Part shown: positions 13,426 through 31,533 of the stretch, piece by piece
Numbering within the stretch: the stretch's first letter is position 1
How the letters are laid out: each line of letters opens with the position of its first letter
NCBI GenBank assembly: GCA_965229355.1
Contig: OZ245869.1
Span: 2,078,318-2,142,317 of the forward strand
DNA from: Rhodospirillaceae bacterium
Lineage (GTDB): Bacteria > Pseudomonadota > Alphaproteobacteria > Rhodospirillales > Rhodospirillaceae
Reading direction: 5' to 3'
DNA length: 64,000 bases
The notes under the pieces: generated by a model
What the model saw: the letters and a program-made list of their open reading frames with translations, nothing else
Databases searched by the model: none
What the model was told of the DNA's origin: nothing
Position numbers and translations under genes: made by a program

Positions 13426-13793
13426 TGAGAACGTCGATTGAGCTGGAAATCGCTGGGGTCTCCTTATCCTATGCCAAAAATTATATCGGGGTTGATTTTG
13501 GCTTCCTGTTTCAGGATGGCGACGAGACGCGACGTAGATCAGACGCCATCGACTATGAGTATTATGAGGATCACCCGGATGAGATCGCAGACCTAGAAGA
13601 GAGCGAGGCCGCTTTTGCCAGACCTCTTTCGCGCGTGCTGCCGCGTCTATCGCTCCTCGGATCCACGATACAAACCGCGCGTGCTGAATATGAGGCGGTG
13701 ATCGCGGAAGCTCTAGAAATGAGTTCTGGCGAAGGGCGCGAACTTGGCCTGCTGTCGTTCGATGAATTTTGCTTGCTTGCCGCTATCCGTTGA
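13425..13793 (+). CDS. hypothetical acidic protein (gene 2 of the coupled operon)
   Basis: 122 aa from GTG 13425. Its stop overlaps the next start (TGATG). The ORF-track start at 13389 would overlap gene 1. Confidence 0.5.
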   Translation: MRTSIELEIAGVSLSYAKNYIGVDFGFLFQDGDETRRRSDAIDYEYYEDHPDEIADLEESEAAFARPLSRVLPRLSLLGSTIQTARAEYEAVIAEALEMSSGEGRELGLLSFDEFCLLAAIR

Positions 13794-14689
13794 TGAGCCT
13801 CAGGGGCGGAGAGGAGTTTCACGACAAAGAAAAAGCTAAGGGCCGGCTTGCTGTAGAAGGTGACTTCGCGCGTCTGCCGTGGACCGATAACTCGGACAGC
13901 TTCTGGTCAGAGCGAAGCTACTTCGGCGCGAAGCTCACGTTGCTGAGTGCAGAGTCTATGCTTCAGGTGTTTAGCCTCAACGCCGAAAACCTGACGGCCG
14001 AGGTGACGTGGGAGTTCGGCACTCTCGTCAGTAGCGGTTGGGCCAGCCGCTCTGAGTTTCAGCCCGGCGCAAGGCGCGTTCAAAAAGTGTTGATCGCGAC
14101 CGAGGGAGCGTCCGACGCTCGGATTATCAAGCGTGCGCTTGAGGTCCTCCGCCCTGACGTCGCCGACTTTTTCAACTTTGTTGATGTGGATGAGCGCCAT
14201 CACTTTTGGGGTACCGGCAATCTCGTAAAATTTGCTGAAGGGCTTCTGCGCATCGACATCCAGAATATGGTTCTGTTCGTGTTTGATAATGACGCAGAGG
14301 GTGTTGATGCTTATCGCAAACTCGAAAATCTGAATCTCCCCGGCAACATGCGCTCGATGCTCTTGCCGAACCTAGACGAGTTTCGCAATTTTCGAGCGCT
14401 TGGGCCCGAAGGCGTTAGCATTTCCGACATAAACGGACGAGCCGCAGCAATCGAGTGCTATCTCGATCTTGAATTGCCGAACAATGCACCCGCGCAAGTG
14501 ATCTGGAGCAACTACAAGAAGGATATCGACGCGTGGCACGGAGCCTTGGAGTTCAAGGATTCCTATCAGCGTCATTTCTACGACCAGACTGACGGTACGC
14601 TTCGGAGTGGGCGTTATGACACTACGAAGCTCTTGAAAATGTTGGACGCAGTAATAGCGCAGGCATCTCTGGTGTCGCCTGTGGTGTAG
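13793..14689 (+). CDS. Toprim-domain protein (OLD/AriB/DUF4435-like nuclease candidate)
   Basis: VLIATEGASDARI (Toprim Glu) followed about 70 aa later by LFVFDNDAEG (DxD). The N-terminal 100 or so residues are unassigned. Confidence 0.6.
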   Translation: MSLRGGEEFHDKEKAKGRLAVEGDFARLPWTDNSDSFWSERSYFGAKLTLLSAESMLQVFSLNAENLTAEVTWEFGTLVSSGWASRSEFQPGARRVQKVLIATEGASDARIIKRALEVLRPDVADFFNFVDVDERHHFWGTGNLVKFAEGLLRIDIQNMVLFVFDNDAEGVDAYRKLENLNLPGNMRSMLLPNLDEFRNFRALGPEGVSISDINGRAAAIECYLDLELPNNAPAQVIWSNYKKDIDAWHGALEFKDSYQRHFYDQTDGTLRSGRYDTTKLLKMLDAVIAQASLVSPVV

Positions 14690-15216: not shown

Positions 15217-16017
15217 TTATAGAGACGGCTTAGCTAAGACACGTGAGCGTTCAACGAATGCTATCGAGATGACCTGTTCGCTGAGTTCTTTAACTGTGGG
15301 GATGCCCAACTCTGCCGACAAAAATAGAAGCCGCGCTTGAACTTCTTCCGGCACCTTCTTTAGCGTTACTCGCTTCGGAGATTGGCCCCTAAAAGCTTTT
15401 TGCGCTTCTTGATGCGCGTTGTTCAAAATAGTCCGAACATCATCGACTGAACGCTTGGCGCGCATGTGGTAGATTTCACGCGATGCGATATCCAGCGCTT
15501 GCTTCAGTCCGCTTTGCTCACTGTCATCGCCGGCTAAAGCCGTGCATAAGCCGTCGATCAAGTCAGCTGCGATCTGACCAGATAGTTTGGTTGCTTTAAT
15601 GTCTTGGACTATTCTGTCAGAGGATTGTTTTGCCGCCTCCGCTCGAAGGTCTGCCAGCCAAGAATCTCGTTGGAAATCTTTAGCACTCGGGACGACAACA
15701 TCGAGTGCACTTATGAAATTGATCATAGCTTCCTCCGCTGTGATTCCGGTGCCTCGCACCCCAAAGGGGCCTACGTCTGCGCAGTAAGCGATGTGCGTTC
15801 GTGTTTCCTTATGAAAGAACTGCATCACTTGCGCCGTCGCCAACGAATTTATCTCGGCGATTATGGCTTCCTCATCTCGCGTTACGTGAGGCGTCGCGAC
15901 TGCATCGTCATCAGCCGGCTGCTCGGTCCGATTCAACGCTTCGCGCCTTGCACGAACGAGCTGATCGCCCTTCACGCCCCGAGCTAAGAAACCATCCTTT
16001 TTGAAGCCTAAAATCAT
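15217..16017 (-). CDS. hypothetical protein with a HicB-like (UPF0150) segment
   Basis: HIAYCADVGPFGVRGTGITAEEAMINFISAL resembles the HicB antitoxin fold motif. The rest is helical and unassigned. Confidence 0.45.
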   Translation of the reverse strand: MILGFKKDGFLARGVKGDQLVRARREALNRTEQPADDDAVATPHVTRDEEAIIAEINSLATAQVMQFFHKETRTHIAYCADVGPFGVRGTGITAEEAMINFISALDVVVPSAKDFQRDSWLADLRAEAAKQSSDRIVQDIKATKLSGQIAADLIDGLCTALAGDDSEQSGLKQALDIASREIYHMRAKRSVDDVRTILNNAHQEAQKAFRGQSPKRVTLKKVPEEVQARLLFLSAELGIPTVKELSEQVISIAFVERSRVLAKPSL

Positions 16018-16132: not shown

Positions 16133-17161
16133 ATGATTGTTCGAGAGTTAACCATTCCAGGCCTTCCGGTCGCGGTACATCGCGCCATCCAGGCGAGTGG
16201 TCAACAACTCCACATCTCGAACTTGCCGGCGCTGGCGCACAGCTTATTACCAACCATAACTTCGAGACTGGATGCAAATGTGCAAGCCCAGTTGAAGCAA
16301 TCGATAAATGCCGCTGTTCCAAAGCTGGTCGTGAAGAATGCTTTCGCGATCGTCGACAATGCGCTCGGCCGTACGCCTGATGGCTTCATCAAACATCCAA
16401 GCGATCCGACGTGGTTGACGGCCGCAGTCTCCGCTTTGACGGTAATGAGCATAGCAGGATTGCAAGCGACCTCATTCGCTGGCGAAAATAAAGGTGAATT
16501 GTTCGTGCACTTGGTTCCGGAGAACACATCCGCGACCGGCCGAAACGCCGAGCAATCAACAGCATTTATGACGGGACATACGGACGCATTGCCGTTTCCA
16601 TTTCCGGCTGAATTTGATCCAGCCAACGTAAGTCTACCACCACCAGCTCCAGATTTCGTCGTTTTGGCGGCACTTCGCAATCCAGGTGACGTTCCTACAA
16701 CTGTGTCGCCTCTCGATGTTTTGCGCACGCACATGGCTGATGATCCTTCGTTCAATACGAAGGTTTCAGATGCACTCTTCCAACGGCACTTCGGTTTTAA
16801 GAGCCAGAGCAGTTGGGACATGGAGTATTATCTGCCGTCTGCACCGATTTTGATGGACGACCAACGCGGGACACTGATCCGGTTCAGTATCGGCGGTACT
16901 CAAGTTCTGCCGGGCGCGCCGGAAGAGGCGGTGACAGCGTACCATCTGCTTTCCGAGGCTTTGAAGCAAAATAGGCAGCAAGTTGTCTTGAAGCCGGGCG
17001 ATATCATGTTGATCAACAACAGGACTAGCCTGCACGGTCGCGAACGGGTGAGCTATTTGCCAGAGGGTAACTCTCGGTGGTTGCTGCGAACATATGGATA
17101 TTACTCATCCACACCACGTCGCATCATAAGTCCATATTGGACGAAGGCCGAGCCTTGTTAA
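16133..17161 (+). CDS. Fe(II)/2-oxoglutarate-dependent oxygenase, clavaminate-synthase/TauD-like
   Basis: The facial triad candidates are GHTDALPF (HxD) and NNRTSLHGRE (distal His). RWLLRTY follows, as in VioC/AsnO-type amino-acid hydroxylases. Confidence 0.65.
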   Translation: MIVRELTIPGLPVAVHRAIQASGQQLHISNLPALAHSLLPTITSRLDANVQAQLKQSINAAVPKLVVKNAFAIVDNALGRTPDGFIKHPSDPTWLTAAVSALTVMSIAGLQATSFAGENKGELFVHLVPENTSATGRNAEQSTAFMTGHTDALPFPFPAEFDPANVSLPPPAPDFVVLAALRNPGDVPTTVSPLDVLRTHMADDPSFNTKVSDALFQRHFGFKSQSSWDMEYYLPSAPILMDDQRGTLIRFSIGGTQVLPGAPEEAVTAYHLLSEALKQNRQQVVLKPGDIMLINNRTSLHGRERVSYLPEGNSRWLLRTYGYYSSTPRRIISPYWTKAEPC

Positions 17162-17679
17162 TCAGAGAAAAGAGATAGCAACCTAATCGTCATCGCTTGC
17201 ATGCTGACTTCGTAAAGTGAGGCCAACTTCCTCAGGTCTTCCTCACTGGTCATATCGATGTCCTGAGCGGCGACATCTTGCTTTAGCCACGCCGCCGGCA
17301 TGAGAAGATTAGCTGCAAACGCATTGGCCTCGCGTTCATCGAGGTGTTCCGCGGTCGTGGAGCGTATATCGCGAAGGTTGACACGAAACTCTTGGTCAAC
17401 GTGAACCTCTTCGCCGTCATGAAGCATCAAGTGCCCCAACTCGTGCGCAATCGTGAAGCGCTGACGCAAGTCATTGTGCAGAGAATTCACGACGATGACA
17501 TTGCCTGACTCAGCACGAAACAGAATTCCCGAAATGTCCTTTTCGAGTTCCATGCGCTTGATGGCGACATTATTCGCTTCAGCAATTGCCTCAACGTCGA
17601 CCGGAGGCTTGATCTGATCGGCAAGCAGTTCATCAACGCGTCGGCGAATACGGGTGTAACCAATCCGTACTCGGATCAC
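17158..17679 (-). CDS. ImmA/IrrE-family zinc metallopeptidase (CapP-like)
   Basis: HEXXH motif IAHELGHLMLH. It overlaps the upstream XRE gene by 4 nt. Confidence 0.8.
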   Translation of the reverse strand: MIRVRIGYTRIRRRVDELLADQIKPPVDVEAIAEANNVAIKRMELEKDISGILFRAESGNVIVVNSLHNDLRQRFTIAHELGHLMLHDGEEVHVDQEFRVNLRDIRSTTAEHLDEREANAFAANLLMPAAWLKQDVAAQDIDMTSEEDLRKLASLYEVSMQAMTIRLLSLFSD

Positions 17680-17978
17680 GACCCGCTCGCTTGTTCTGAC
17701 TTAATCGTGTCGATTACCTTCAGCACGTCCTCACGTCCCGCAAGTTTGTCAGCTGCTTTTTCTTCTCGCGCTTCGACCAACTGCGACGGATTTGCGTTCA
17801 GCGCTTTTGCGATGTCGACCATTTGATGGAGCAGCACGCGTTGGCGGCCGCTTTCAATATTTGTGATTGATGCGCGAGACAGAGACACGCGATTCGCGAG
17901 TTCTTCTTGGGTGATTTTTCGATTTTCGCGCAGCTCCTTCACCCGATTTCCGAATAGTTTATAAACGCGTTTTTCCAT
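17676..17978 (-). CDS. XRE-family helix-turn-helix repressor (CapH-like)
   Basis: 100 aa with the helix-turn-helix region ITQEELANRVSLSRASITNIESGRQ. It is divergent from the ubiquitin-like operon. Confidence 0.8.
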   Translation of the reverse strand: MEKRVYKLFGNRVKELRENRKITQEELANRVSLSRASITNIESGRQRVLLHQMVDIAKALNANPSQLVEAREEKAADKLAGREDVLKVIDTIKSEQASGS

Positions 17979-18165: not shown

Positions 18166-18657
18166 ATGGAAAAGCCGGATAGCAAGGAATTGGTGGAAAT
18201 CTTGTTCGCCCAAGAAGGCCATCGTGATCCGAAGGTGGATAAAGTTGGCTCTAAAGTCACGGTCAGTGACTTCTTGAAACACGTCACCCAGGGTGACCCC
18301 GCCGAGTTTGAGTTTTCGAGCGAAGATGCCAACGAACCGATCGGAAACGACCTCCTGATCGGTGATGTTGCCCGTCGCGGTGGCCAAGCTGTGTTCCACG
18401 TTTCGCGTCGCGGCCTCATCGCAGTTCATGTGACGTTCAACGGCCGCGTTATCAGCAAAGACTTCCGCCCGAACGTGACGATGAACACGATTGTGATTTG
18501 GGCAATGCGTGAACTCCGTCTCGACGGCGTGCCATCGGACTACCAACTCAAATACCGCGACCAGCTTTTGCCCCCGGGTGATCACTTGGGGCAAATCACG
18601 CATGGCGCCAAGGAAATCAAGCTCACTCTTGTCATGAAGATTAAGCCGCAGGGGTAA
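18166..18657 (+). CDS. bilA: tandem ubiquitin-like (beta-grasp) protein ending in Gly (BilA-like)
   Basis: 163 aa, enough for two beta-grasp-sized halves. The C-terminus is ...MKIKPQG followed directly by the stop codon. AGGAG lies 7 nt before the ATG, and the E2-like gene starts 3 nt downstream. Confidence 0.75.
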   Translation: MEKPDSKELVEILFAQEGHRDPKVDKVGSKVTVSDFLKHVTQGDPAEFEFSSEDANEPIGNDLLIGDVARRGGQAVFHVSRRGLIAVHVTFNGRVISKDFRPNVTMNTIVIWAMRELRLDGVPSDYQLKYRDQLLPPGDHLGQITHGAKEIKLTLVMKIKPQG

Positions 18658-18660
18658 ATC

Positions 18661-19173
18661 ATGAGCTTGGACGAAACTGCATTGAACGCCTCGATCGCGA
18701 GTTCGAGTTTTCGGATCGGGGTGGCGCGTAGCAAATGGCGGCACGTGAAAACTGATTTCCCTCACGTGTACTTCCAAATTGCTCTGCCGAAAAATAAACC
18801 GGGTCCAGAATGGGTTCTCATTCGGGTCAAGTGCGATGGCTTTCCAGCCATCGCGCCTACTGCTCAGCTTTGGGACGCCCGCACAAACGCGGCACTGCCT
18901 GACAACCTCCGCCCCTTTGGTGCTACGGGGTTGCTGATCCAGTTCTCAGCCTGGGGAGCATGTCTCTATCACCCGATTGACCGTGTCGCCCGCGACCATT
19001 GGCCTGGCAAATTCCAGGAACTGGTGTGGTTGCCAGGCTCATCCATCGCTGCATTTTTGGAAGTGGTTCATGATCTCTGCAATGATTCGGCGTATGTCCG
19101 CTGCGATGCGCCCGCAGCAGCGGCTGAAATGCAACAAGTTCCTCTGGAAGAAATTGCTGCTCAAGCTGCGTGA
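18661..19173 (+). CDS. bilB: E2-like ubiquitin-conjugating protein (BilB-like)
   Basis: 170 aa. The candidate active site is FSAWGACLYHPIDR. It sits between the ubiquitin-like and JAB genes. Confidence 0.65.
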   Translation: MSLDETALNASIASSSFRIGVARSKWRHVKTDFPHVYFQIALPKNKPGPEWVLIRVKCDGFPAIAPTAQLWDARTNAALPDNLRPFGATGLLIQFSAWGACLYHPIDRVARDHWPGKFQELVWLPGSSIAAFLEVVHDLCNDSAYVRCDAPAAAAEMQQVPLEEIAAQAA

Positions 19174-19576
19174 ACGCGGGCAAGGGCGCCAGGAAAGCGG
19201 TGCTTTTTTGCTGGGTCGCGAGATTGATGGCGTTCGGGTCATTGAAGATTTCATTCTTTATGACGACGTCGATCCGAACGCCTTGCGCGGTATCATCATG
19301 TTTGATGGCTCCAAAATGGATAAGGTTTGGCAACGCTGCGAAGCCACTGGACTACAAGTGGTTGCGGATGTGCACACTCATCCATACGGATATCAGCAAA
19401 GCCACATCGATCAAGCGAACCCGATGATTCCACAATCAGGGCACATCGCGATGATCGTTCCCAATTTTGCTCAGCAGTTGTTCGGCCCCGAGCAAGTCGG
19501 CATTTTCGAGTACCGGGGTAAGGGGCGCTGGAAAGATCACAGCGCCACGCGGTATCTCGCATTGTCATGGTGGTAA
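19106..19576 (+). CDS. bilC: JAB/JAMM metallo-isopeptidase (BilC-like); start uncertain
   Basis: JAMM motif ESGAFLLG ... DVHTHPYGYQQSHIDQ. In-frame starts at 19094, 19106 or 19154 all overlap the E2 gene's 3' end. Confidence 0.75.
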   Translation: MRPQQRLKCNKFLWKKLLLKLRERGQGRQESGAFLLGREIDGVRVIEDFILYDDVDPNALRGIIMFDGSKMDKVWQRCEATGLQVVADVHTHPYGYQQSHIDQANPMIPQSGHIAMIVPNFAQQLFGPEQVGIFEYRGKGRWKDHSATRYLALSWW

Positions 19577-19577
19577 A

Positions 19578-20885
19578 ATGAATCATCCCCTCTTCAGCGA
19601 CCGCCCTGCTCAAGCGCTCATGGCGCGAGACCAGGATCTCGACTACGCATCCGCGCGCCTTAAGTTGGAAACGGCATCCGTGGTATTGACCGTGGATGAT
19701 GAGATGTCGGACTGGCATCAGGCAGCGCTGATTGCGTTCGTCGCCTGCGGATCGCGGATGTTCCAGGGCGGCGTATTTTTACAAGATTTTCCTGACGCGG
19801 CCACGCGCGTTGGCCATCAGCAGCGCCTCTCGATTACTCGTGTACTGATCCGAGGTGGCGCCAGGCCAGGGCAGCGCCCACCTGGGGCTCTTCGTATTCA
19901 CTTTGGATCTAAGGGAAGTGCCGACCTTTACGTGCAGTGTGAAGGTTGGACCGCGCATGTCGGACCCATTCCCATCGAAACGACAGGTCACTCAAACAGT
20001 AACGTGGTCGTCGGCGCGTTCGCGGCGGCGCTCGGCGCGACGGCTGCATTTCGTCAACTGATCTTCAATGACGTTCGAGCCTCTAGATTTCAGCAGTCGC
20101 ACAAGTTGATGACCTCTGATGAAGTGGATCAAAGTGGAACAATTACAGCCTTACCAAAGCATCTGTGGTTGCTAGGGGCTGGCAACTTGGGCCAGGCGGT
20201 GCTGATGATTCTCGGTCTGTTGCCGTGGAAGGATTGCGAAGACTTCCACTTGCACATCAACGACGGGGACATCGTTGGGCCAGAAAATGTAATGGTCCAA
20301 GTGCTCACACAATCGAATTGGATTGGCTCCAAAAAAGCGCGTGTTGTTGCGAGTTGGGCGGAGGCACAGGGCTTTAAAACGAGTATCGATGAGCGCTTAT
20401 TTGGCTCATATACCCATCCCATGCCATACGAGCCACGCGTAGCTCTGGTATGCGTCGATAACGTGGACGCACGACGCGCTGCCTCCATGGCCGGGTTTGA
20501 CTTGGTGATTGATGGCGGTCTTGGCGCCACAGCTGCTGATCTGTTTGATTTACGTGTTCATGCGTTCCCGAGTGACCTTGATATTGACCGCATCTGGCCA
20601 TTGGACACTACCTCCGCTGTCAGCGAACTTCCTGCCAACCTGAAAGCTATGGTTGGACAAGGGCAACTTGATGACTGCGGCGCAACAACGATTGCGGGCA
20701 AAAGCGTGGGCGTACCTTCGACCGCAATGGCGTGCGCGGCGTTGCAAGTCGCACAGTTATTGTCAGTTCTAATGACGGGACGTTGCGCCAAGACGGTTGA
20801 TGCAAGCCTTGCCGACATAAAGCGGGCACACGCTGTTATGATGGCCGACGATACGCGCGTTCATTTGGCGCGGTTGAGTTGTTAG
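19578..20885 (+). CDS. bilD: E1-like adenylating enzyme, ThiF/MoeB fold (BilD-like)
   Basis: Rossmann motif LLGAGNLGQAVLMILG. 435 aa from the ATG at 19578, 1 nt after the JAB stop codon. Confidence 0.75.
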   Translation: MNHPLFSDRPAQALMARDQDLDYASARLKLETASVVLTVDDEMSDWHQAALIAFVACGSRMFQGGVFLQDFPDAATRVGHQQRLSITRVLIRGGARPGQRPPGALRIHFGSKGSADLYVQCEGWTAHVGPIPIETTGHSNSNVVVGAFAAALGATAAFRQLIFNDVRASRFQQSHKLMTSDEVDQSGTITALPKHLWLLGAGNLGQAVLMILGLLPWKDCEDFHLHINDGDIVGPENVMVQVLTQSNWIGSKKARVVASWAEAQGFKTSIDERLFGSYTHPMPYEPRVALVCVDNVDARRAASMAGFDLVIDGGLGATAADLFDLRVHAFPSDLDIDRIWPLDTTSAVSELPANLKAMVGQGQLDDCGATTIAGKSVGVPSTAMACAALQVAQLLSVLMTGRCAKTVDASLADIKRAHAVMMADDTRVHLARLSC

Positions 20886-22567
20886 CGCGGATATCTGCAG
20901 CGGCCACGGTACTCGCCGTCTGACTCGAAGAAGATGCACTCAAGGTCAAATTCTTTGGCAGGCTCAATGATGTCGTCTTCTACGTGCGCGCGTGCCTCGG
21001 CCTCATTACGGTGCACGACAATGTGAGGTAGATGCGCCATGAGCAAGTCACTGCTCGGATTGCTGCTGCTTGTGGCGTTCAGCACCATGTGACCAATGAC
21101 ATTTCTTGCTTGACCGTCCTCGGGCAGCGAGTTCTTGCGCAAGATAAGCTCCGTGACCCAAACGAAGTGCGGTAACGCTCGATCAATGAGGCCCGCTTTA
21201 ACGTCATCGCTCAAATTTGTCTCTGCGATGTGGCGGCGATATTTGCCGGCGGTCGTCAGATAAGTTCGTTGAACCAATTCGCCGGCAGCAAATAAATCCA
21301 AGAAAGCATTAATGAAGGGCAGGATGTGTGCCTTCTTCTCTTGGATCCTTGCAATCAGCTCCGGGTCATTGTTGGTGGCCAATTTTTCAAGGTAATCACG
21401 AACCACCAAGTTTGCGCGGTCTGCACTGATTAACACGCGGTTCGGTAACGCGACAAACATGTGGGACACTGCTTGGTCCACAGTCAGAATTTTACCGTGG
21501 TCATTGAGCAGTCGGTCTTTTGGCAAGTGCTCGATGTCTTTTTCTGTCAGAGGCATATAGCGGTACGGACCACGCTGATCATCATGAACGATCAATGCTC
21601 GCACAAAGCAATCATAGGAACTGCCCTCGCGGACGGCGCCACCACGATCTTCGATATATCCTACCGCCGTTATTGCATGTTCTATGTCGTCCAGCGCGAG
21701 TACGACACCCAAGCCCCCATCGATGTAGCGCAAGATTGTTTCAGCGGCCTCTGGTGACGGAGCCGCAATTTTCGCCGCCTCCAATGCTGGTCCAGATTTC
21801 AATCGCGCTGATTCGAGGCGCTCTTGATCGCGGAACAAGTAATACAAAGGTTGGTGGCCCATACCACGCAGCGCTCTGATGATATGCAGTGGATTGAGGC
21901 CAGCTGACCCCGCCGGTAGTGATTGGCTTAAGGCTACATCCGTCGGTGTCGTGGCGTGCTGCGTGATTTCGGTGACGGAGTGCCATGTCGCTCGGGGATA
22001 ACGAAGATGGATCGGTCGTGCTGCCATCCAGATTGCTGCCTGCGCACAGGCGCCGACGCGCGTATCTTGCTGGATAAACGGTGCAACGTCCGGAATCGAG
22101 AATGTGTGGCCGCGCAGCTGTGCTGAAATTCCAGCGCGCGCTCCAGCGCGAACGACGTAACTGTCCGTACTAGCAGGGTACGGCAGATTAGTTCGCCCGA
22201 TTGGGCCCTGGCCGATGGGGCGCACGACGAGAAATCCAAGATATTCTGTTTTCTTAAACTCTGCTGATTGCTCAGCAAGTGGCTTGCCGACGATCGCGCT
22301 CACATCGGCCTTGAAGAAGTGCACACGTTTCGTAAACCGCGGGTACTCGTGAAATGCGGTAGCGTAGAAGCTCCAATAATCAGTCGAGTAATCGAGATCG
22401 GTGTATGGATATTCGACGATGGCGTAAGTGGCGCCAATGTCTTTTAGGTGCTCAACAATCGCTGACGCGCAAACGCTTGAGCCTCCTTCCTTAAGGCCGA
22501 CAAACAGTGCGCGAATGATGTTAAAGCCGTCGGGATCTAGAGCGATCCCCTTGATTTCGATGCGCAT
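20882..22567 (-). CDS. 561-aa hypothetical protein with a putative papain-like cysteine-peptidase core
   Basis: FIQQDTRVGACAQAAIWMA (Gln then Cys) and about 120 aa later DDIEHAITAVGY...HDD (His then Asp) resemble a C39/papain-fold arrangement. Its stop codon overlaps the bilD stop. Confidence 0.45.
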   Translation of the reverse strand: MRIEIKGIALDPDGFNIIRALFVGLKEGGSSVCASAIVEHLKDIGATYAIVEYPYTDLDYSTDYWSFYATAFHEYPRFTKRVHFFKADVSAIVGKPLAEQSAEFKKTEYLGFLVVRPIGQGPIGRTNLPYPASTDSYVVRAGARAGISAQLRGHTFSIPDVAPFIQQDTRVGACAQAAIWMAARPIHLRYPRATWHSVTEITQHATTPTDVALSQSLPAGSAGLNPLHIIRALRGMGHQPLYYLFRDQERLESARLKSGPALEAAKIAAPSPEAAETILRYIDGGLGVVLALDDIEHAITAVGYIEDRGGAVREGSSYDCFVRALIVHDDQRGPYRYMPLTEKDIEHLPKDRLLNDHGKILTVDQAVSHMFVALPNRVLISADRANLVVRDYLEKLATNNDPELIARIQEKKAHILPFINAFLDLFAAGELVQRTYLTTAGKYRRHIAETNLSDDVKAGLIDRALPHFVWVTELILRKNSLPEDGQARNVIGHMVLNATSSSNPSSDLLMAHLPHIVVHRNEAEARAHVEDDIIEPAKEFDLECIFFESDGEYRGRCRYPR

Positions 22568-22632
22568 ACGCTTCTCAGTGGGGCGGTATTTTCCCTACCT
22601 TAAGGCGCAAACTGCGGAATCTCTAGTGGCTA

Positions 22633-22857
22633 TCAGCGGATAGCAAAAATCGACGCTGTGGCGATCACCAAGCTCGCGCGCTTTTCTTTGCGCGCAATTT
22701 CTTTCAGGCCATTTTCCGTTACGTAACCAAACGTGCCAGAAGAACTGAGCTTCACGGTGTTGTCCGCGAGCTCGGTGCGTTTAGGGTTCAGCGTTTGAAC
22801 CTTTTTTTGATCGGGCATTTGCGACGCATTTTCAGTGTTGGTTTTGTCGGGGCACAT
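22633..22857 (-). CDS. possible small tail-anchored protein (weak)
   Basis: 74-aa ORF upstream of 20882..22567 on the same strand. It has a hydrophobic C-terminus (ASLVIATASIFAI) and no clear RBS. Confidence 0.25.
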   Translation of the reverse strand: MCPDKTNTENASQMPDQKKVQTLNPKRTELADNTVKLSSSGTFGYVTENGLKEIARKEKRASLVIATASIFAIR

Positions 22858-23360: not shown

Positions 23361-23768
23361 CTATGCCGCGGCCGCTGACAGCGCTTCGATGATGCGGCAG
23401 TCCTTGATATTGCCACCTTTACACTGCCTGATGACACGCTTCAGTTCGTGAGCTAAGCGCGAAAGGTCTGCAACTTTCTGTTCCACATCGGCCAGATGCG
23501 TTCGAGCGATATCATCGACTGTGCAGCAGTCGTTGGTACCCGTTTCGGTCATGTTGAGCAGATCGCGTATTTGTTGAAGTGTGAAGCCGAGTGACCGTGC
23601 TCTCCGCACGAATGACAGCCGCTCCAAATGCTGCTGACCGTAGGCTCTGTAGTTACCTTTGGTGCGCGGCGGCGCCGGCAATATTCCCATGCCTTCATAG
23701 TATCTGATCGTCACAACCTTTGTGTCTGTGCGCTTGGCGAGTTCACCAATCGTAAAAGGAGCGTCCAT
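23361..23768 (-). CDS. MerR-family heavy-metal-responsive regulator (ZntR/CadR-like)
   Basis: The N-terminal helix-turn-helix is FTIGELAKRTDTKVVTIRYYEGMGIL. C-terminal Cys residues (NDCCTV, RQCKGGNIKDC) could bind metal. Confidence 0.85.
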   Translation of the reverse strand: MDAPFTIGELAKRTDTKVVTIRYYEGMGILPAPPRTKGNYRAYGQQHLERLSFVRRARSLGFTLQQIRDLLNMTETGTNDCCTVDDIARTHLADVEQKVADLSRLAHELKRVIRQCKGGNIKDCRIIEALSAAAA

Positions 23769-23771
23769 GGC

Positions 23772-23804
23772 TTGACCCTATAGTTCCTATAGACCTCATA
23801 TTAC
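23772..23804 (+). promoter_or_regulatory. MerR-type promoter with a 19-bp spacer
   Basis: TTGACC (23772-23777), dyad CTATAG-TTC-CTATAG (23778-23792), CATATT (23797-23802). It lies between merR-like (-) and the CDF gene (+). Confidence 0.7.
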
Positions 23805-23833
23805 CCGTAAATACGCAAAATCACGAGGTCCCC

Positions 23834-24475
23834 ATGGGCGCAAGTTGTTGCGGCGGTACGCCGCCCAAGATCGAAATAAAGCACGACGAAAAATACCGCC
23901 GCATACTTTGGATCGTGCTGGCTATCAACGCAGCCATGTTTGTCGCTGAGATCACAGCAGGGATGCTTGCGGGCTCCGTATCGTTGCAGGCAGACGCTCT
24001 CGACTTTCTCGGCGACGCAGCAAATTACGGGATCAGCTTGTTCGTGATTGGAATGTCGCTGCGGTATCGCGCAACGGCGGCGCTCATCAAAGGCGTATCG
24101 ATGGGAGTATTTGGGTTCTGGGTCACAGGCTCGACGTTGGTCCAGCTTGCCAACGGTGCCGTTCCACAAGCTGAGACGATGGGTGTCGTGGGCGCGGTCG
24201 CATTGTTGGCGAACGTCGCGTGTTTTGGCCTTTTGTGGGCCTACCGCAACGGGGATTCAAATATGCGTTCAGTATGGATTTGCTCGCGAAACGATGCACT
24301 CGGCAATGTCGCGGTTCTATTCGCAGCAGCCGGTGTGTTTGGCACTCAACAAGGATGGCCAGATATTCTGGTCGCCGGAGTGATGGCTGCGTTAGCGCTG
24401 CAAGGTGCGTGGATTACTATTCGTGCTGCGACGATGGAATTAAAAGAGCCGGAGGCCCAGGCCTCCGGCTCTTAA
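23834..24475 (+). CDS. cation-diffusion-facilitator transporter, short form (membrane domain only)
   Basis: AEITAGMLAGSVSLQADALDFLGD matches the CDF TM2 signature. At 213 aa it has no cytoplasmic C-terminal domain. Confidence 0.8.
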   Translation: MGASCCGGTPPKIEIKHDEKYRRILWIVLAINAAMFVAEITAGMLAGSVSLQADALDFLGDAANYGISLFVIGMSLRYRATAALIKGVSMGVFGFWVTGSTLVQLANGAVPQAETMGVVGAVALLANVACFGLLWAYRNGDSNMRSVWICSRNDALGNVAVLFAAAGVFGTQQGWPDILVAGVMAALALQGAWITIRAATMELKEPEAQASGS

Positions 24476-24487
24476 TTCCGTTTTACC

Positions 24488-24592
24488 TTAGCAGGGGCAA
24501 ATCGGGCAGATCATCGACAACGTGTTCACGACGTCGGCCATTGCTGTGCCGGCCATCAGAACGCCTGTCAAAGCGAGAGCTAATACTTTCAT
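24488..24592 (-). CDS. 34-aa secreted Cys-rich peptide (not in the ORF track)
   Basis: MKVLALALTGVLMAGTAMA/DVVNTLSMICPICPC. A strong SD (AAGGGAGG) ends about 6 nt before the ATG. It lies downstream of the HXXEE gene on the same strand. Confidence 0.5.
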   Translation of the reverse strand: MKVLALALTGVLMAGTAMADVVNTLSMICPICPC

Positions 24593-24690
24593 AGAAACCT
24601 CCCTTTGTAGTTTGAGCCTGCTCACAATACGCGAAAATATGACCGTATGGTCAGTTTTCTAAAGGGGACCGCAGTTCGGTCGCTTTTGGC

Positions 24691-25254
24691 TTAGCTGGCG
24701 GCCCAGCAGGGCATTTTAAGGCGAATGAGACCCCACCAAGCCGCCGGTACCAGGGGCACAACAGTCGCCATACCAGGGAAGTAGCCGTAGGGGCTGCCGG
24801 TAAAAAGCGGGAATGCGAAATGAGCCAATTCGATGACGCCCATGGACGTGAAGAAAGTCCAGGCTAGAAACCAACCGAACTCACGACCTCGCTTCATCAA
24901 GTACGGGATCAGCAGCCACGCGCCTGACAAAGCGTAAAGGGCAAAAACCATCGGCGAACTGGTGTCCGGCATTGGCACGCCAGTAATTTTTGAAAGAGCA
25001 GGGAAGAAGTCCATGTAGCGCTCTTCGATTTTGTGAAGTGCGAAGAATAGAAGCGTAATCCAATACGCCGTTCGAATGCGCTCGAAGCGTGCGTGTGCAG
25101 GGACAACAACCCACAAAATGAATCCGCCAACAAAGCCCAGCGTGAAGAGCAGTGCTGGCAAAAGTCCAAGCATCAAGTAACCAAGAACAACGACTGCGCC
25201 AGTGTAAGTAGCTGCGCCAGCAACTGTGAAAGATCGCTTCACGGCAATGACCAA
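24691..25254 (-). CDS. HXXEE-domain membrane protein
   Basis: Polytopic, 187 aa, with FALHKIEERYMDFF (HXXEE motif). Confidence 0.7.
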   Translation of the reverse strand: MVIAVKRSFTVAGAATYTGAVVVLGYLMLGLLPALLFTLGFVGGFILWVVVPAHARFERIRTAYWITLLFFALHKIEERYMDFFPALSKITGVPMPDTSSPMVFALYALSGAWLLIPYLMKRGREFGWFLAWTFFTSMGVIELAHFAFPLFTGSPYGYFPGMATVVPLVPAAWWGLIRLKMPCWAAS

Positions 25255-25584
25255 GGGTTATGTTTCACGCCACTCACAGTTAATCCGGCCGTGAGATTTA
25301 AATACAACGGATGAGGATGCCTGGGGTTCACACTGCGTCCAAAGTAACTGTTTGAGCCAGGCGTCAACATAGGAAGCGGCACGAAAAATTGTTATTTGTA
25401 TAAGATGGCACTGGCTGATCAGTTGCGCCCGCGCCCGCGCATGAAAGTTAACGAGTGACAAAGCGATGAGCGCTCAACGGTTTACGATACATGAGGCCAC
25501 ATCACTCGATGCGTCCAGTGTCCGAAACACGGTGTTACAAACCCGCGCTTGCGCTTTTTTTCGAAGCAGCCCTATATAAACGCT

Positions 25585-25938
25585 ATGAAACGCTTTTTCG
25601 CCATCATTGCGATTTTGCTTGCCGTTGGGTTCCTCAACGGCGGCAATGCTGTTTCTGCTCATCAAATGAATAGTGTTGTCGTTGAAATCGAAGCGACGAA
25701 CGATCAATTTTTCGTCGCAGCTGACAGCGAATCGCATCACGAAGATGAGAAAGGTTGCTGCTGGGATAGTTTGTGCTTCAGCGCAAATCATTGCCATCAT
25801 GCTGGTGGCTCAGGCGCCTTTCTGAGCTTTGCCGACACCGTGACGGGACCGGTCACTTCAAGTGCGTTTGAAGCAACATCGGACAGCGTCCGCGCGCTCG
25901 CACTTACTTATCTCCTTATAGATCCTCCTAGAGCCTAA
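25585..25938 (+). CDS. small secreted His/Cys-rich protein (CzcI-like position)
   Basis: Signal peptide MKRFFAIIAILLAVGFLNGGNAVSA, then SESHHEDEKGCCWDSLCFSANHCHH. It lies immediately upstream of czcC-like. Confidence 0.6.
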   Translation: MKRFFAIIAILLAVGFLNGGNAVSAHQMNSVVVEIEATNDQFFVAADSESHHEDEKGCCWDSLCFSANHCHHAGGSGAFLSFADTVTGPVTSSAFEATSDSVRALALTYLLIDPPRA

Positions 25939-26020
25939 TCGCATCTCTGCGCCGCAATAGCGGCGCGAACTCCGATGGTGCGACTTGTTGCACCGAGTTT
26001 AATGCGACGAAAGGCTACCT

Positions 26021-27325
26021 ATGTTTACGCGATTATTTTTTGGCGCGCTGCTGAGCGCGACAGCATGCACGGCTGTACTGCCGGCTTTTGCTCAAGTTCA
26101 AGGTCAATCCCAATCTGAGTTGGGTCTGTTACAGCCCGGCGCCCCTGTCACGCTGCGCGATGCGATCAATCGCGTATTAGAAGTGAACCCGAAATTAGCG
26201 GGCCAGAAATTCGCTTTAGCCGCCGCCGACGCACGCCGAAATCAGGCGGCACTGCGTCCCGCTTATGAAGTGGGTGTCGAGATCGAAGATATCTTCGGCA
26301 CAGACAAACTCTCAACGTTCAACGATTCCCAGATAACGCTTCAGCTCAGCACGGTCATTGAGATGGGTGGCAAGCGTGGCAACCGTATTGGTGCGGCAGA
26401 CCGCGAGCGAGACCTGCTCCTCACCGAACAAGATGCTGAGAAACTCGATACCATTGCCGAAGTAACGCGCCGCTATATCCGTCTGGTCGCCGCACAGCGT
26501 GAGGTCACGCTTGCTGCCCGATCCTACGAGCTTGCGTCAAATACACGAAAAGTCGTGGGCCAGCGGGTTTCAGCCGGCCGCGCCGCTGCCGCTGAAGATC
26601 GCAATGCTGACATCGCGCTCGCACGTGCACAAATTCAACGCGCCCGTGCAGATAGTGCCGTCACTCAAGCATCGCAAAGCCTTGCTGCGATGTGGGGCGG
26701 CGATAGCGTGGGTAAAATAGAGACATCTGCGGAACTGTTTACGCTGCCAGTGCTCGTCGCAGAACCTGCTCTCGGAACGCTGCTCGAGCAGAACCCAAAT
26801 CTTGTGCGGTTTGCTTCGGAACGTCGCGTCCAAGAAGCGAAAATTCGATTAGCCGAAAGCCAAGCGGCGCCTGACTTAACGGTCGGTGCCGGTGTGCGTC
26901 GCGTTCAAAGCAATCGGAGCAACGCTTTCGTCATGTCGGTCTCCGTGCCACTCGGCACCGGCAATCGTGCGGCCCCGTACGCTGCCGAAGCGCGCAGTAA
27001 CCTTCAAGTCGTTGACTTCAAGGAAAAGGCCGCGCGGGCGGAGCTGTCCGCAACCCTGTCAGCTTTCTACCAAGAAGCTCAGCAGCGTCAGGCGGAGGTG
27101 GAGATCCTGCGCCAGAGCGCAGTGCCACAGGCGGAAAGTGCCGCTGACCTTACGCGCAATGGGTTCGGCCAAGGGCGGTTCTCATTCCTCGAGCTTCTAA
27201 ACTCGCAGCAGCAACTCGTCGATGTGCAGCGCGCAGCCATCGATGCGGCCGTCGCGTACCACAACGCTGTCATTGAAATCGAACGTTTGACCGCGCGCGC
27301 TGTCTCCCAAGCCGGCGCTCAGTAG
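26021..27325 (+). CDS. czcC: outer-membrane efflux protein (CzcC/TolC family)
   Basis: 434 aa with a signal peptide and a two-repeat OEP-like sequence. It is the first gene of the C-B-A order. Confidence 0.8.
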   Translation: MFTRLFFGALLSATACTAVLPAFAQVQGQSQSELGLLQPGAPVTLRDAINRVLEVNPKLAGQKFALAAADARRNQAALRPAYEVGVEIEDIFGTDKLSTFNDSQITLQLSTVIEMGGKRGNRIGAADRERDLLLTEQDAEKLDTIAEVTRRYIRLVAAQREVTLAARSYELASNTRKVVGQRVSAGRAAAAEDRNADIALARAQIQRARADSAVTQASQSLAAMWGGDSVGKIETSAELFTLPVLVAEPALGTLLEQNPNLVRFASERRVQEAKIRLAESQAAPDLTVGAGVRRVQSNRSNAFVMSVSVPLGTGNRAAPYAAEARSNLQVVDFKEKAARAELSATLSAFYQEAQQRQAEVEILRQSAVPQAESAADLTRNGFGQGRFSFLELLNSQQQLVDVQRAAIDAAVAYHNAVIEIERLTARAVSQAGAQ

Positions 27326-27334
27326 GAAACAAAA

Positions 27335-31533
<4,199 letters not shown>

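Follow-up and report, generated by a model that had tools for sequence, protein, structure and literature searches.

Bacterial defence systems that conjugate ubiquitin-like proteins (Ubl), i.e. Bil, Bub and the type II cyclic-oligonucleotide-based antiphage signalling system (CBASS), have so far been described with JAB or BubE peptidases only, and without any E3 or downstream effector. The JAB deconjugases BilC (Bil) and Cap3 (type II CBASS) are genetically tied to a bacterial E1/E2 operon, and the published four-gene Bil operon has no thiol-peptidase component. In Bub, BubE (DUF6527), a small beta-sandwich protein with a C4 zinc finger and a Ser-His dyad, is present in all 544 operons as a second peptidase and removes BubA conjugates (Ye et al. 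2024 preprint, 10.1101/2024.11.21.623953). Outside these systems, the Pepco/EACC1 modules associate a small non-enzymatic protein with an adjoining dedicated protease, whose additional domains may be sensors (Evans et al. 2025 preprint, PMC12642450).

We analysed a stretch of 64,000 nt from Rhodospirillaceae bacterium (GCA_965229355.1, contig OZ245869.1, positions 2,078,318-2,142,317, forward strand), referred to below, over its whole length, as the window. It carries a Type I Bil island in which bilD, the E1 gene, meets tail-to-tail an open reading frame (ORF) of 561 amino acids, itself preceded on the same strand by an ORF of 74 amino acids. An earlier note, made by a model from the sequence alone, had proposed that the larger product is a papain-like cysteine peptidase and that the smaller ORF is weak and tail-anchored. 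We found that the two genes form one conserved module, with a near-universal pairing, and that this module belongs to a large family recurrently joined to E1 operons. The following features are considered first.

20882..22567, minus strand: peptidase gene, 561 amino acids, ATG start, stop codon included
22082..22567, minus strand: N-terminal alpha/beta domain of the peptidase, residues ~1-162 (secondary structure of the AlphaFold2 model)
21443..22081, minus strand: predicted central papain-fold (C39-like) catalytic domain, residues ~163-375 (Foldseek, conservation)
20885..21442, minus strand: C-terminal domain, residues ~376-561 (AlphaFold2 model, conservation)
22633..22857, minus strand: small partner gene, 74 amino acids, upstream of the peptidase gene
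20882..20885, both strands: overlapping convergent stop codons, TTAG (sequence)

The family with its two unassigned domains, its partner and its recurrent welding onto E1 genes are new, while the fold, the logic of a protease with a small partner and the presence of an extra peptidase in an Ubl operon are of kinds already known. In the literature searched (papers on Bil, on Bub and on papain classification), the module is not described with Bil or Bub, nor as a defence system, and PADLOC v2 has no model for it. These observations suggest an unrecognised protease arm of bacterial Ubl systems. A thiol peptidase and its partner on the E1 of three unrelated operon types add a component to the described systems, and they give a handle on the regulation or read-out of conjugation pathways and on what Bub-like systems do.

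A thiol peptidase family and its small partner

The motifs that had led to the peptidase proposal were all found in the 561-residue protein: QQDTRVGACAQAAIWMA contains Q166, Q167 and C174, IEHAITAVGY contains H297, and HDD corresponds to H328-D329-D330. On the DNA, the catalytic codons lie at 22046-22048 for Cys174 (aca, reverse complement tgt), 22067-22069 for Gln167, 21677-21679 for His297 and 21581-21583 for Asp329. The AlphaFold2 model of the protein, obtained with an alignment of 45 sequences (predicted local distance difference test 86.9; predicted template modelling score 0.90), is composed of three domains (residues ~1-162, ~163-375 and ~376-561). In this model, Cys174 opens helix 174-189, His297 opens strand 297-307 and Asp329 closes strand 322-329, i.e. 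the active-site residues occupy the positions that they have in papain, Cys at a helix N-terminus, His where a strand begins and Asp where the following strand ends. We used Foldseek to compare the model with the PDB. The top matches are all papain-fold thiol peptidases, namely ComA/PCAT1 C39, ZUFSP, UfSP2 and Josephin ubiquitin clippase, with E-values that are all above 1e-3; the best is ComA C39 (3k8u), with a template modelling (TM) score of 0.66 normalised on the target and a probability of 1.0. Moreover, Gln167, Cys174, Trp180 and His297 are invariant in 78 out of 78 distinct members, down to ~25% identity, and Asp329 is found in 76 of them, the remaining two having Asn, as in papain. The catalytic motifs are also retained in plasmid relatives at ~30% identity. 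Judging from the predicted fold and from the conservation of the catalytic residues, the protein is very probably a papain-fold (C39-like) thiol peptidase, as the earlier note had supposed, and the fold together with the invariant Gln-Cys-His-Asp set predicts that it is apparently active.

We chose the label C39-like for this peptidase. By score, it is not a member of Pfam Peptidase_C39_2 (PF13529): 21 out of 45 relatives match this family weakly, all below threshold (best E 0.0042), and the window peptidase does not match it even at E ≤ 5. It is not C78-like either, since its residues follow the papain/C39 order (Cys174...His297...Asp329), whereas in the active site of UfSP and Atg4 the His comes after the Asp (Cys...Asp-Pro-His; PMC10318531). 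Membership of the C78/UfSP group was rejected for this reason. The likeness to C39 peptidases (ComA/PCAT1) lies in the papain fold, the Gln...Cys...His...Asp order, the Cys at a helix N-terminus and the best structural match. In contrast to these enzymes, the peptidase described here is not fused to an ABC transporter and is cytoplasmic, with no membrane part predicted; it has two large conserved flanking domains that are absent from C39, and it is accompanied by a small protein with a conserved C-terminus instead of a double-glycine leader peptide.

Both flanking domains are well conserved. In the N-terminal one, E52, Y55, D57, D59, R81, H83, F85, Y109, G111, R116 and P117 are conserved at ≥97% in 78 sequences; in the C-terminal one, the conserved residues are R434, T435, L437, P466, E473 and T499. 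Neither domain has a significant fold match in Foldseek searches against the PDB and BFVD. With single-sequence and profile searches, nothing was found for the 561-residue protein in Pfam, PADLOC, NCBIfam, PHROGs or the PDB sequences. PADLOC was also negative for six further members of the family, and it detects no homology of the 561- and 74-residue proteins to BilA, BilB, BilC or BilD. A profile search covering 1.84 billion cluster representatives (clusters at 50% identity) returned 4,957 clusters at E ≤ 1e-3, of which 2,354 reach E ≤ 1e-30; most are of 500-570 amino acids and align over the whole profile. All close homologs (at least 299) are named "hypothetical" and have no Pfam domain. 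This is thus a large family (~5,000 clusters) without a match in Pfam, PADLOC, NCBIfam or PHROG.

We then considered the small gene that accompanies the peptidase gene. The latter is preceded by a small same-strand ORF in all contexts first examined, and the same holds for nearly all loci of our genome sample, which comprised 80 species-representative loci (designated below by L and a number). The partner family comprises 66 distinct sequences, whose last 45 residues align essentially gap-free. The N-terminus is variable, and it is followed by a conserved C-terminal region of ~40 amino acids, in which a short strand-like segment leads into an amphipathic helix and then a tail. The tails are clade-specific and end exactly at the stop codon. 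In the Bil-linked clade (clade A), the tail is ...TTAxxFAFR, the window copy having FAIR; in the second, Bub-like clade (clade B), it is ...AAQExQKFSWR; in the third clade (clade C), it is ...SG-h-h-h-G/A/S. All three clades share hydrophobic residues at -3 and -1. The partner is kept beside remote plasmid relatives (Shewanella and Hymenobacter). It is located upstream of the peptidase gene in clades A-C and immediately downstream in two remote members on viral contigs (L089 and L090). The window partner has no match in Pfam (E ≤ 0.1), PADLOC or PHROG, and the copy of L004 has no Pfam match at E ≤ 0.5.

The 74-residue ORF proved to be neither weak nor tail-anchored: it encodes a conserved hydrophilic partner present beside nearly every member of the peptidase family. 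The median Kyte-Doolittle value of the family is -1.09, and the single-sequence AlphaFold2 model of the partner shows a disordered N-terminus followed by one helix (residues 48-73), so that a tail-anchored membrane protein was rejected. The first impression is explained by the window copy, which at +0.31 is the most hydrophobic of the 66.

The variable N-terminus and the conserved C-terminal 40 amino acids, beside a protease with two large non-catalytic domains as possible sensors, would fit a logic of the Pepco/EACC1 type. The small protein would then be a latent effector, and a cut by the peptidase (e.g. removal of the variable N-terminus) would release an active peptide of ~40 amino acids. 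Published small non-enzymatic proteins located beside serine or cysteine proteases are indeed activated by one site-specific cut (PMC12642450). However, the partner matches no Pfam family, Pepco and EACC1 included; it is shorter, and its conserved part is short and very hydrophilic, unlike the known pore formers of more than 100 amino acids. No conserved internal cleavage motif is evident in it beyond one Gly. The protease is C39-like, whereas those of the published modules are caspase- or trypsin-like, and a linkage to E1/Ubl operons is undescribed for the latter. We therefore regard an effector role of the partner as quite unlikely.

Linkage of the module to E1 operons

In the window, the module faces a complete Bil operon and its regulators. 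PADLOC recognises these neighbours as BilA, BilB, BilC and BilD, with E-values from 6e-25 to 2e-92.

19578..20885, plus strand: bilD (E1), PADLOC BilD E 1.8e-92, ThiF
19094..19576, plus strand: bilC (JAB/JAMM peptidase), start approximate, PADLOC BilC E 1.3e-63, Prok-JAB
18661..19173, plus strand: bilB (E2), PADLOC BilB E 6e-43, Pfam DUF7665/BilB-like E 3.9e-29
18166..18657, plus strand: bilA (Ubl with two beta-grasp domains), PADLOC BilA E 5.6e-25
17676..17978, minus strand: capH, PADLOC E 6.6e-13, HTH_3
17158..17679, minus strand: capP, PADLOC E 7.8e-36, Peptidase_M78

The ATG at 19578 is the likely start of bilD, judging from the lengths of its homologs; the mechanical ORF opens at 19467. 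The PADLOC match of BilC covers residues 40-192 of the ORF 18977..19576. The CapH/CapP pair consists of regulators divergent from the Bil operon. BilA of the window ends in ...KIKPQG, with its C-terminal Gly exposed. Two Bradyrhizobium BilA proteins (L003:13885-14385 and L012) carry an "AS" extension past this conserved Gly, so that processing would be needed, whereas the window BilA stops at Gly.

Among the 80 loci, 51 have a convergent E1 gene within 400 nt of the stop codon of the peptidase gene, and these are called E1-linked here. The linked operons are of three kinds. The first is the Type I BilABCD operon with CapH/CapP, as in the window. The second, Bub-like, has three genes and a divergent helix-turn-helix (HTH) regulator; it encodes an 89-residue Multi_ubiq-like Ubl, a 130-residue Prok-E2_E-like E2 and a 473-residue E1 that is a homolog, over nearly its full length, of the Citrobacter BubCD JAB-E1 fusion (PDB 9ea4, E 3.9e-21). 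The third kind (L051:9515-12004 and L062:9630-12116) encodes a 245-residue Multi_ubiq protein with two repeats, a 196-residue JAB-like protein (HxH...S..D motif; Pfam negative) and a short ThiF E1 of 307 residues; CapH/CapP-like regulators are present, and no E2 was identified at these loci. BLASTP detected no similarity between BilD and the Bub-like E1, nor between BilB and the Bub-like E2. The peptidases of the Bil and Bub-like clades are ~35% identical across 85-95% of their length.

We clustered all the ORFs of these loci without bias to define the conserved blocks. The Bil-clade block has eight genes (partner, peptidase, BilD, BilC, BilB, BilA, CapH and CapP), capH/capP being present in 8 of the 9 clade-A loci. 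The Bub-like block has six genes (partner, peptidase, JAB-E1, E2, Ubl and HTH), each found in at least 37 of 38 loci, and the module is present in 38 out of 38 intact Bub-like operons. Nothing further is conserved around the six-gene block, and BubE is absent from this clade. Neither block contains a transporter. The blocks are kept across phyla, with differing flanks. In a neighbour-joining tree of the peptidases, the Bil-linked and the Bub-like-linked clades are each monophyletic, with secondary losses of the E1 operon nested in the latter (L020, L043 and L045), and the pair L051/L062 sits among stand-alone members. This distribution implies at least three separate dockings of the module on E1 operons. 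The association of the peptidase gene with Ubl/E1/E2 operons is thus a recurrent one, and we consider with high confidence that it is not accidental.

Some additional observations concern these operons. In L019 (8822-10125), the peptidase gene is interrupted by an insertion of ~1.3 kb, with BilABCD intact. In L020 (9482-9862), the E1, E2 and Ubl genes are gone and the HTH regulator abuts an intact peptidase gene. The Bub-like Ubl (L004:13382-13651 and 40 other clade-B loci), which has a single domain, ends with an invariant ...RFLAIxNDDNS, with neither a C-terminal Gly nor an extension, an unusual end for a presumed substrate of E1 adenylation. Among the matches listed for the Bub-like JAB-E1 (L004:11575-12996 and relatives), more than 120 clusters share at least 82% identity. 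The 38 intact clade-B loci come from metagenome-assembled genomes of several phyla (Dehalococcoidia, Acidobacteria, Gammaproteobacteria, Rhodothermales and Nitrospira), several of which are named for, or were sampled from, sponge symbionts. A recent horizontal spread of the six-gene block is suggested by these data.

The junction between the two convergent genes is itself recurrent. On the plus strand of the window, t-t-a-g at 20882-20885 contains the stop codon TAG of bilD (20883-20885) and, as the complement of 20882-20884, the stop codon TAA of the peptidase gene. The two genes overlap by 4 nt and the intergenic space is zero; the shared stops and the lack of room for a terminator, both pointed out in the earlier note, are confirmed on the sequence. 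An identical 4-nt YTAR stop overlap is found in 35 of the 51 E1-linked loci, from different species (39 loci with the first five loci added), which exceeds chance. In these 39 loci, the comparison of an 80-nt window at the junction with gene-body controls revealed no hairpin (mean z 0.11; 0 out of 39 below -1.5). Since the folding energy did not differ from that of the controls, we rejected the idea that the junction contains a hairpin acting as a bidirectional terminator. Because the stops overlap and there is no hairpin, each transcript would read antisense into the opposite gene.

Terminator-like motifs (a stem and a T-run) are enriched in the region 21316-22840, with 10 motifs versus 3.4 ± 2.2 in shuffled sequences. 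Nine of the 10 are on the plus strand, opposite to the coding strand of the peptidase and partner genes. One lies inside the partner ORF, with a 9-bp stem followed by TTTTTTG (22783-22803), and Bil read-through transcripts might end there.

The family also exists without any Ubl operon. At 28 stand-alone or remote loci, no relative of E1, E2, Ubl or JAB was found within 6-8 kb. The neighbours at such loci include Piwi/Argonaute with DUF4391 and an SNF2 helicase, the type I restriction subunit HsdR with YgjP, TniQ, a caspase-family protein with a DEAD helicase, and a TrlF ATPase with a Tn3 transposase. On viral contigs, only three remote relatives (~22% identity) were found, none of them E1-linked. 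In one IMG/VR contig (L089:5932-13289), the peptidase-partner pair is beside a Piwi-domain Argonaute, DUF4391 and an SNF2 helicase; in another (L090:5977-7760), a remote ~22% member has its partner directly downstream of the peptidase gene. The module is therefore a candidate new defence or conflict module carrying two conserved domains of unassigned fold.

These stand-alone copies, common in mobile or defence contexts, raise the possibility of a hitch-hiking cassette, either of toxin-antitoxin type or an independent defence, that would be self-contained and functionally unconnected to Bil, e.g. a stabiliser in the same island. The module outlives the loss of E1 operons, Bil systems function as four genes, and the arrangement recalls type II toxin-antitoxin pairs in gene order and sizes, the enzyme being encoded after a small protein that is partly disordered. 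Type II pairs with disordered antitoxins are known, and staphopain, a cysteine protease, is paired with staphostatin, its cognate cytoplasmic inhibitor. As in these systems, an enzyme is encoded here together with a small, partly disordered protein that could fill the active-site cleft; however, there is no homology, the partner has no DNA-binding domain and the likeness is one of architecture only. Moreover, mere co-localisation in an island gives no such fixed junctions as those observed: the convergent geometry on E1 with its 4-nt overlap recurs on three non-homologous types of E1 operon, in at least three lineages, and the Bub-like block, in which the module is never missing when the operon is intact, spans phyla with differing flanks. 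A hitch-hiking cassette is thus unlikely.

Proposed role of the module

Whether or not an Ubl operon is present, the three peptidase domains, their catalytic set and the partner show the same degree of conservation. It is therefore likely that the core activity does not differ between contexts and centres on the partner rather than on the Ubl. The reading that we favour, tentatively and at somewhat less than an even chance, is that of a latent peptidase, plugged or licensed by its partner, which has been recruited as an accessory protease arm of Ubl-conjugation systems. Peptidases of clan CA classically prefer a hydrophobic residue at P2 and a basic residue at P1. The partner tail of the window clade, in which a bulky hydrophobic residue at -1 is followed by a terminal Arg, matches this preference, which suggests the tail as a product-like ligand. 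In addition, the peptidase and its partner persist intact after the loss of the E1 operon (the three clade-B losses described above), and small proteins paired with licensing proteases provide a precedent (PMC12642450).

In such a latent complex, the partner would bind the peptidase through its strand, its helix and its C-terminal tail. Occupying the non-prime subsites much like a cleavage product, the tail would serve as a plug or licence that keeps the protease latent, and the partner would be labile owing to its disordered N-terminus. In the Bil clade, the module could be coupled to the conjugation operon by convergent transcription, by action on Ubl-marked proteins, or by both. Transcription of bil induced through CapH/CapP would run antisense through the peptidase and partner genes, the terminator being absent. 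This antisense transcription may lower the supply of partner and free the protease, as a second-line output or as a reset. The substrates of the freed protease could include Ubl-marked proteins.

Several points weigh against this reading. The binding site of the partner is one that we infer, and the antisense coupling is a proposal drawn from the junction. The last residue of the partner is G, A, S, K or D in clade C and R, L, A or E in remote members, a variation that weakens a strict plug model. The peptidase columns that switch with the tail class (Arg versus Gly end) are conservative swaps away from the catalytic motifs, and no sign of an S1-pocket switch or of S1-type covariation with the tail class was seen among the peptidase columns. 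Furthermore, Bil works as four genes, without the module (Hör et al. preprint). Among 25 metagenomic loci of BilD relatives with enough 3' sequence, only 6 carry the module, so that it is to be seen as accessory to one Bil subclade, the CapH/CapP-regulated one, and not as part of the Bil core. BilD-relative loci without it have unrelated genes downstream, and CapH/CapP are present in 5 out of 5 peptidase-positive metagenomic Bil loci with upstream sequence. Finally, two observations speak for an Ubl-directed role instead, namely the fold likeness to UfSP2, ZUFSP and Josephin and the lack of BubE from the Bub-like clade.

Such a role is the strongest rival to our favoured reading, and we consider it possible but doubtful. 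In the E1-linked clades, the peptidase would cut the isopeptides that join Ubl to target, or else Ubl precursors, in the role of negative regulator or recycler, and the small protein would be its cofactor or inhibitor; it would then be a cysteine-protease counterpart of BubE, Cap3 or BilC. The fold matches do include the papain-fold enzymes acting on Ubl tails, i.e. the Ubl-specific ZUFSP and UfSP2 (C78) as well as Josephin ubiquitin clippase, but these matches are weak (E 0.02-0.3 and TM 0.2-0.45 overall; E 0.024-0.05 and TM 0.27-0.34 on the target for ZUFSP/UfSP2), and His297 precedes Asp329, so that the order of the active site is not of the UfSP/Atg4 type. C39 enzymes cleave after Gly-Gly and BilA ends in Gly; however, the clade-B Ubl ends in Ser, and the partner tails (F-x-F/W-R) are unlike those of the cognate Ubl (KPQG and NDDNS). 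The module is tightly co-inherited with E1. In addition, the clade-B operon has a JAB-E1 of BubCD type, no BubE in its six-gene block and always the thiol peptidase, a pattern that, all the published Bub operons carrying BubE, is consistent with non-orthologous displacement. Like BubE, the enzyme is an extra peptidase besides JAB in an operon for E1, E2 and Ubl, present where BubE is missing. It differs from BubE as a papain-fold Cys enzyme of 561 residues that is convergently transcribed, has a small partner and is also found without a Ubl system.

Against an Ubl-directed role, a JAB enzyme already exists in every linked operon type, either as BilC, fused to E1, or as the 196-residue JAB-like protein of L051/L062. 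Like BilC and Cap3, the thiol peptidase is genetically tied to a bacterial E1/E2 operon; those enzymes are metallopeptidases of another fold, and with BilC already present in the window, the thiol peptidase is an addition and not a replacement. That it is the sole deubiquitinating enzyme of clade B, where JAB was thought to be missing, was rejected, the clade-B E1 being a JAB-E1 fusion. The suggestion of the earlier note that the peptidase is a second deconjugating enzyme thus remains doubtful: it draws some support from the BubE-less Bub-like clade, whereas the same conservation in copies without a nearby Ubl system indicates that the core activity is probably not Ubl-specific.

The absence of an E3 gene from Bil operons and the tight linkage to E1/E2 would also fit a Cys-dependent E3-like transferase. 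Its Cys-His-Asp site would accept the Ubl from E2~Ubl as a thioester and transfer it onto either a target amine or the small protein, thereby supplying the missing Bil E3. BtrH and other papain-fold enzymes related to Peptidase_C39_2 are acyl-transferases that act from a carrier thioester to an amine, and ligases of the SidC type use a Cys-His-Asp triad. However, no E1 or E2 is available to supply the stand-alone members and known ligases are absent from the top fold matches, which makes a transferase very unlikely. In six partner proteins, the conserved 40 amino acids contain no Lys, and a role of the partner as a conserved Lys acceptor for Ubl was rejected on this ground.

A further possibility, which we hold to be improbable, is that the peptidase is the reader, missing so far, that acts downstream of Ubl tagging in bacteria. 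Ubl-marked (phage) proteins would be recognised through its non-catalytic domains, and its thiol site would degrade them or, as a Cys-dependent E3-like transferase, pass the Ubl on, the partner acting as a gate. If so, bacterial Ubl conjugation would feed a dedicated protease or ligase, beyond steric blocking.

Neighbouring genes of the island

At the other end of the island, a TauD/CsiD-like dioxygenase ORF (16133..17161, plus strand) and capP (17158..17679, minus strand) form a second convergent 4-nt stop overlap (17158-17161). A TauD gene is also found near the Bradyrhizobium island L003, at a different position. Further away, an ORF of 306 amino acids (13769-14689) matches the model of the HEPN/Toprim N-terminal domain over its C-terminal part only (E 3.8e-17; PADLOC negative), and may be a defence-type gene that is truncated or mis-started. 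Between this gene and the TauD-like one, an ORF of 266 amino acids (15217-16017, minus strand) is negative in both Pfam and PADLOC.

On the other side, the module is flanked in the window by a heavy-metal efflux cluster (23361-28303) encoding a MerR regulator, a CDF cation-efflux protein, an outer-membrane factor and a CzcB-like membrane-fusion protein. In L001 (1-6351), too, the module has a czc-type cluster beside it, although the peptidases of the two loci are only ~50% identical.

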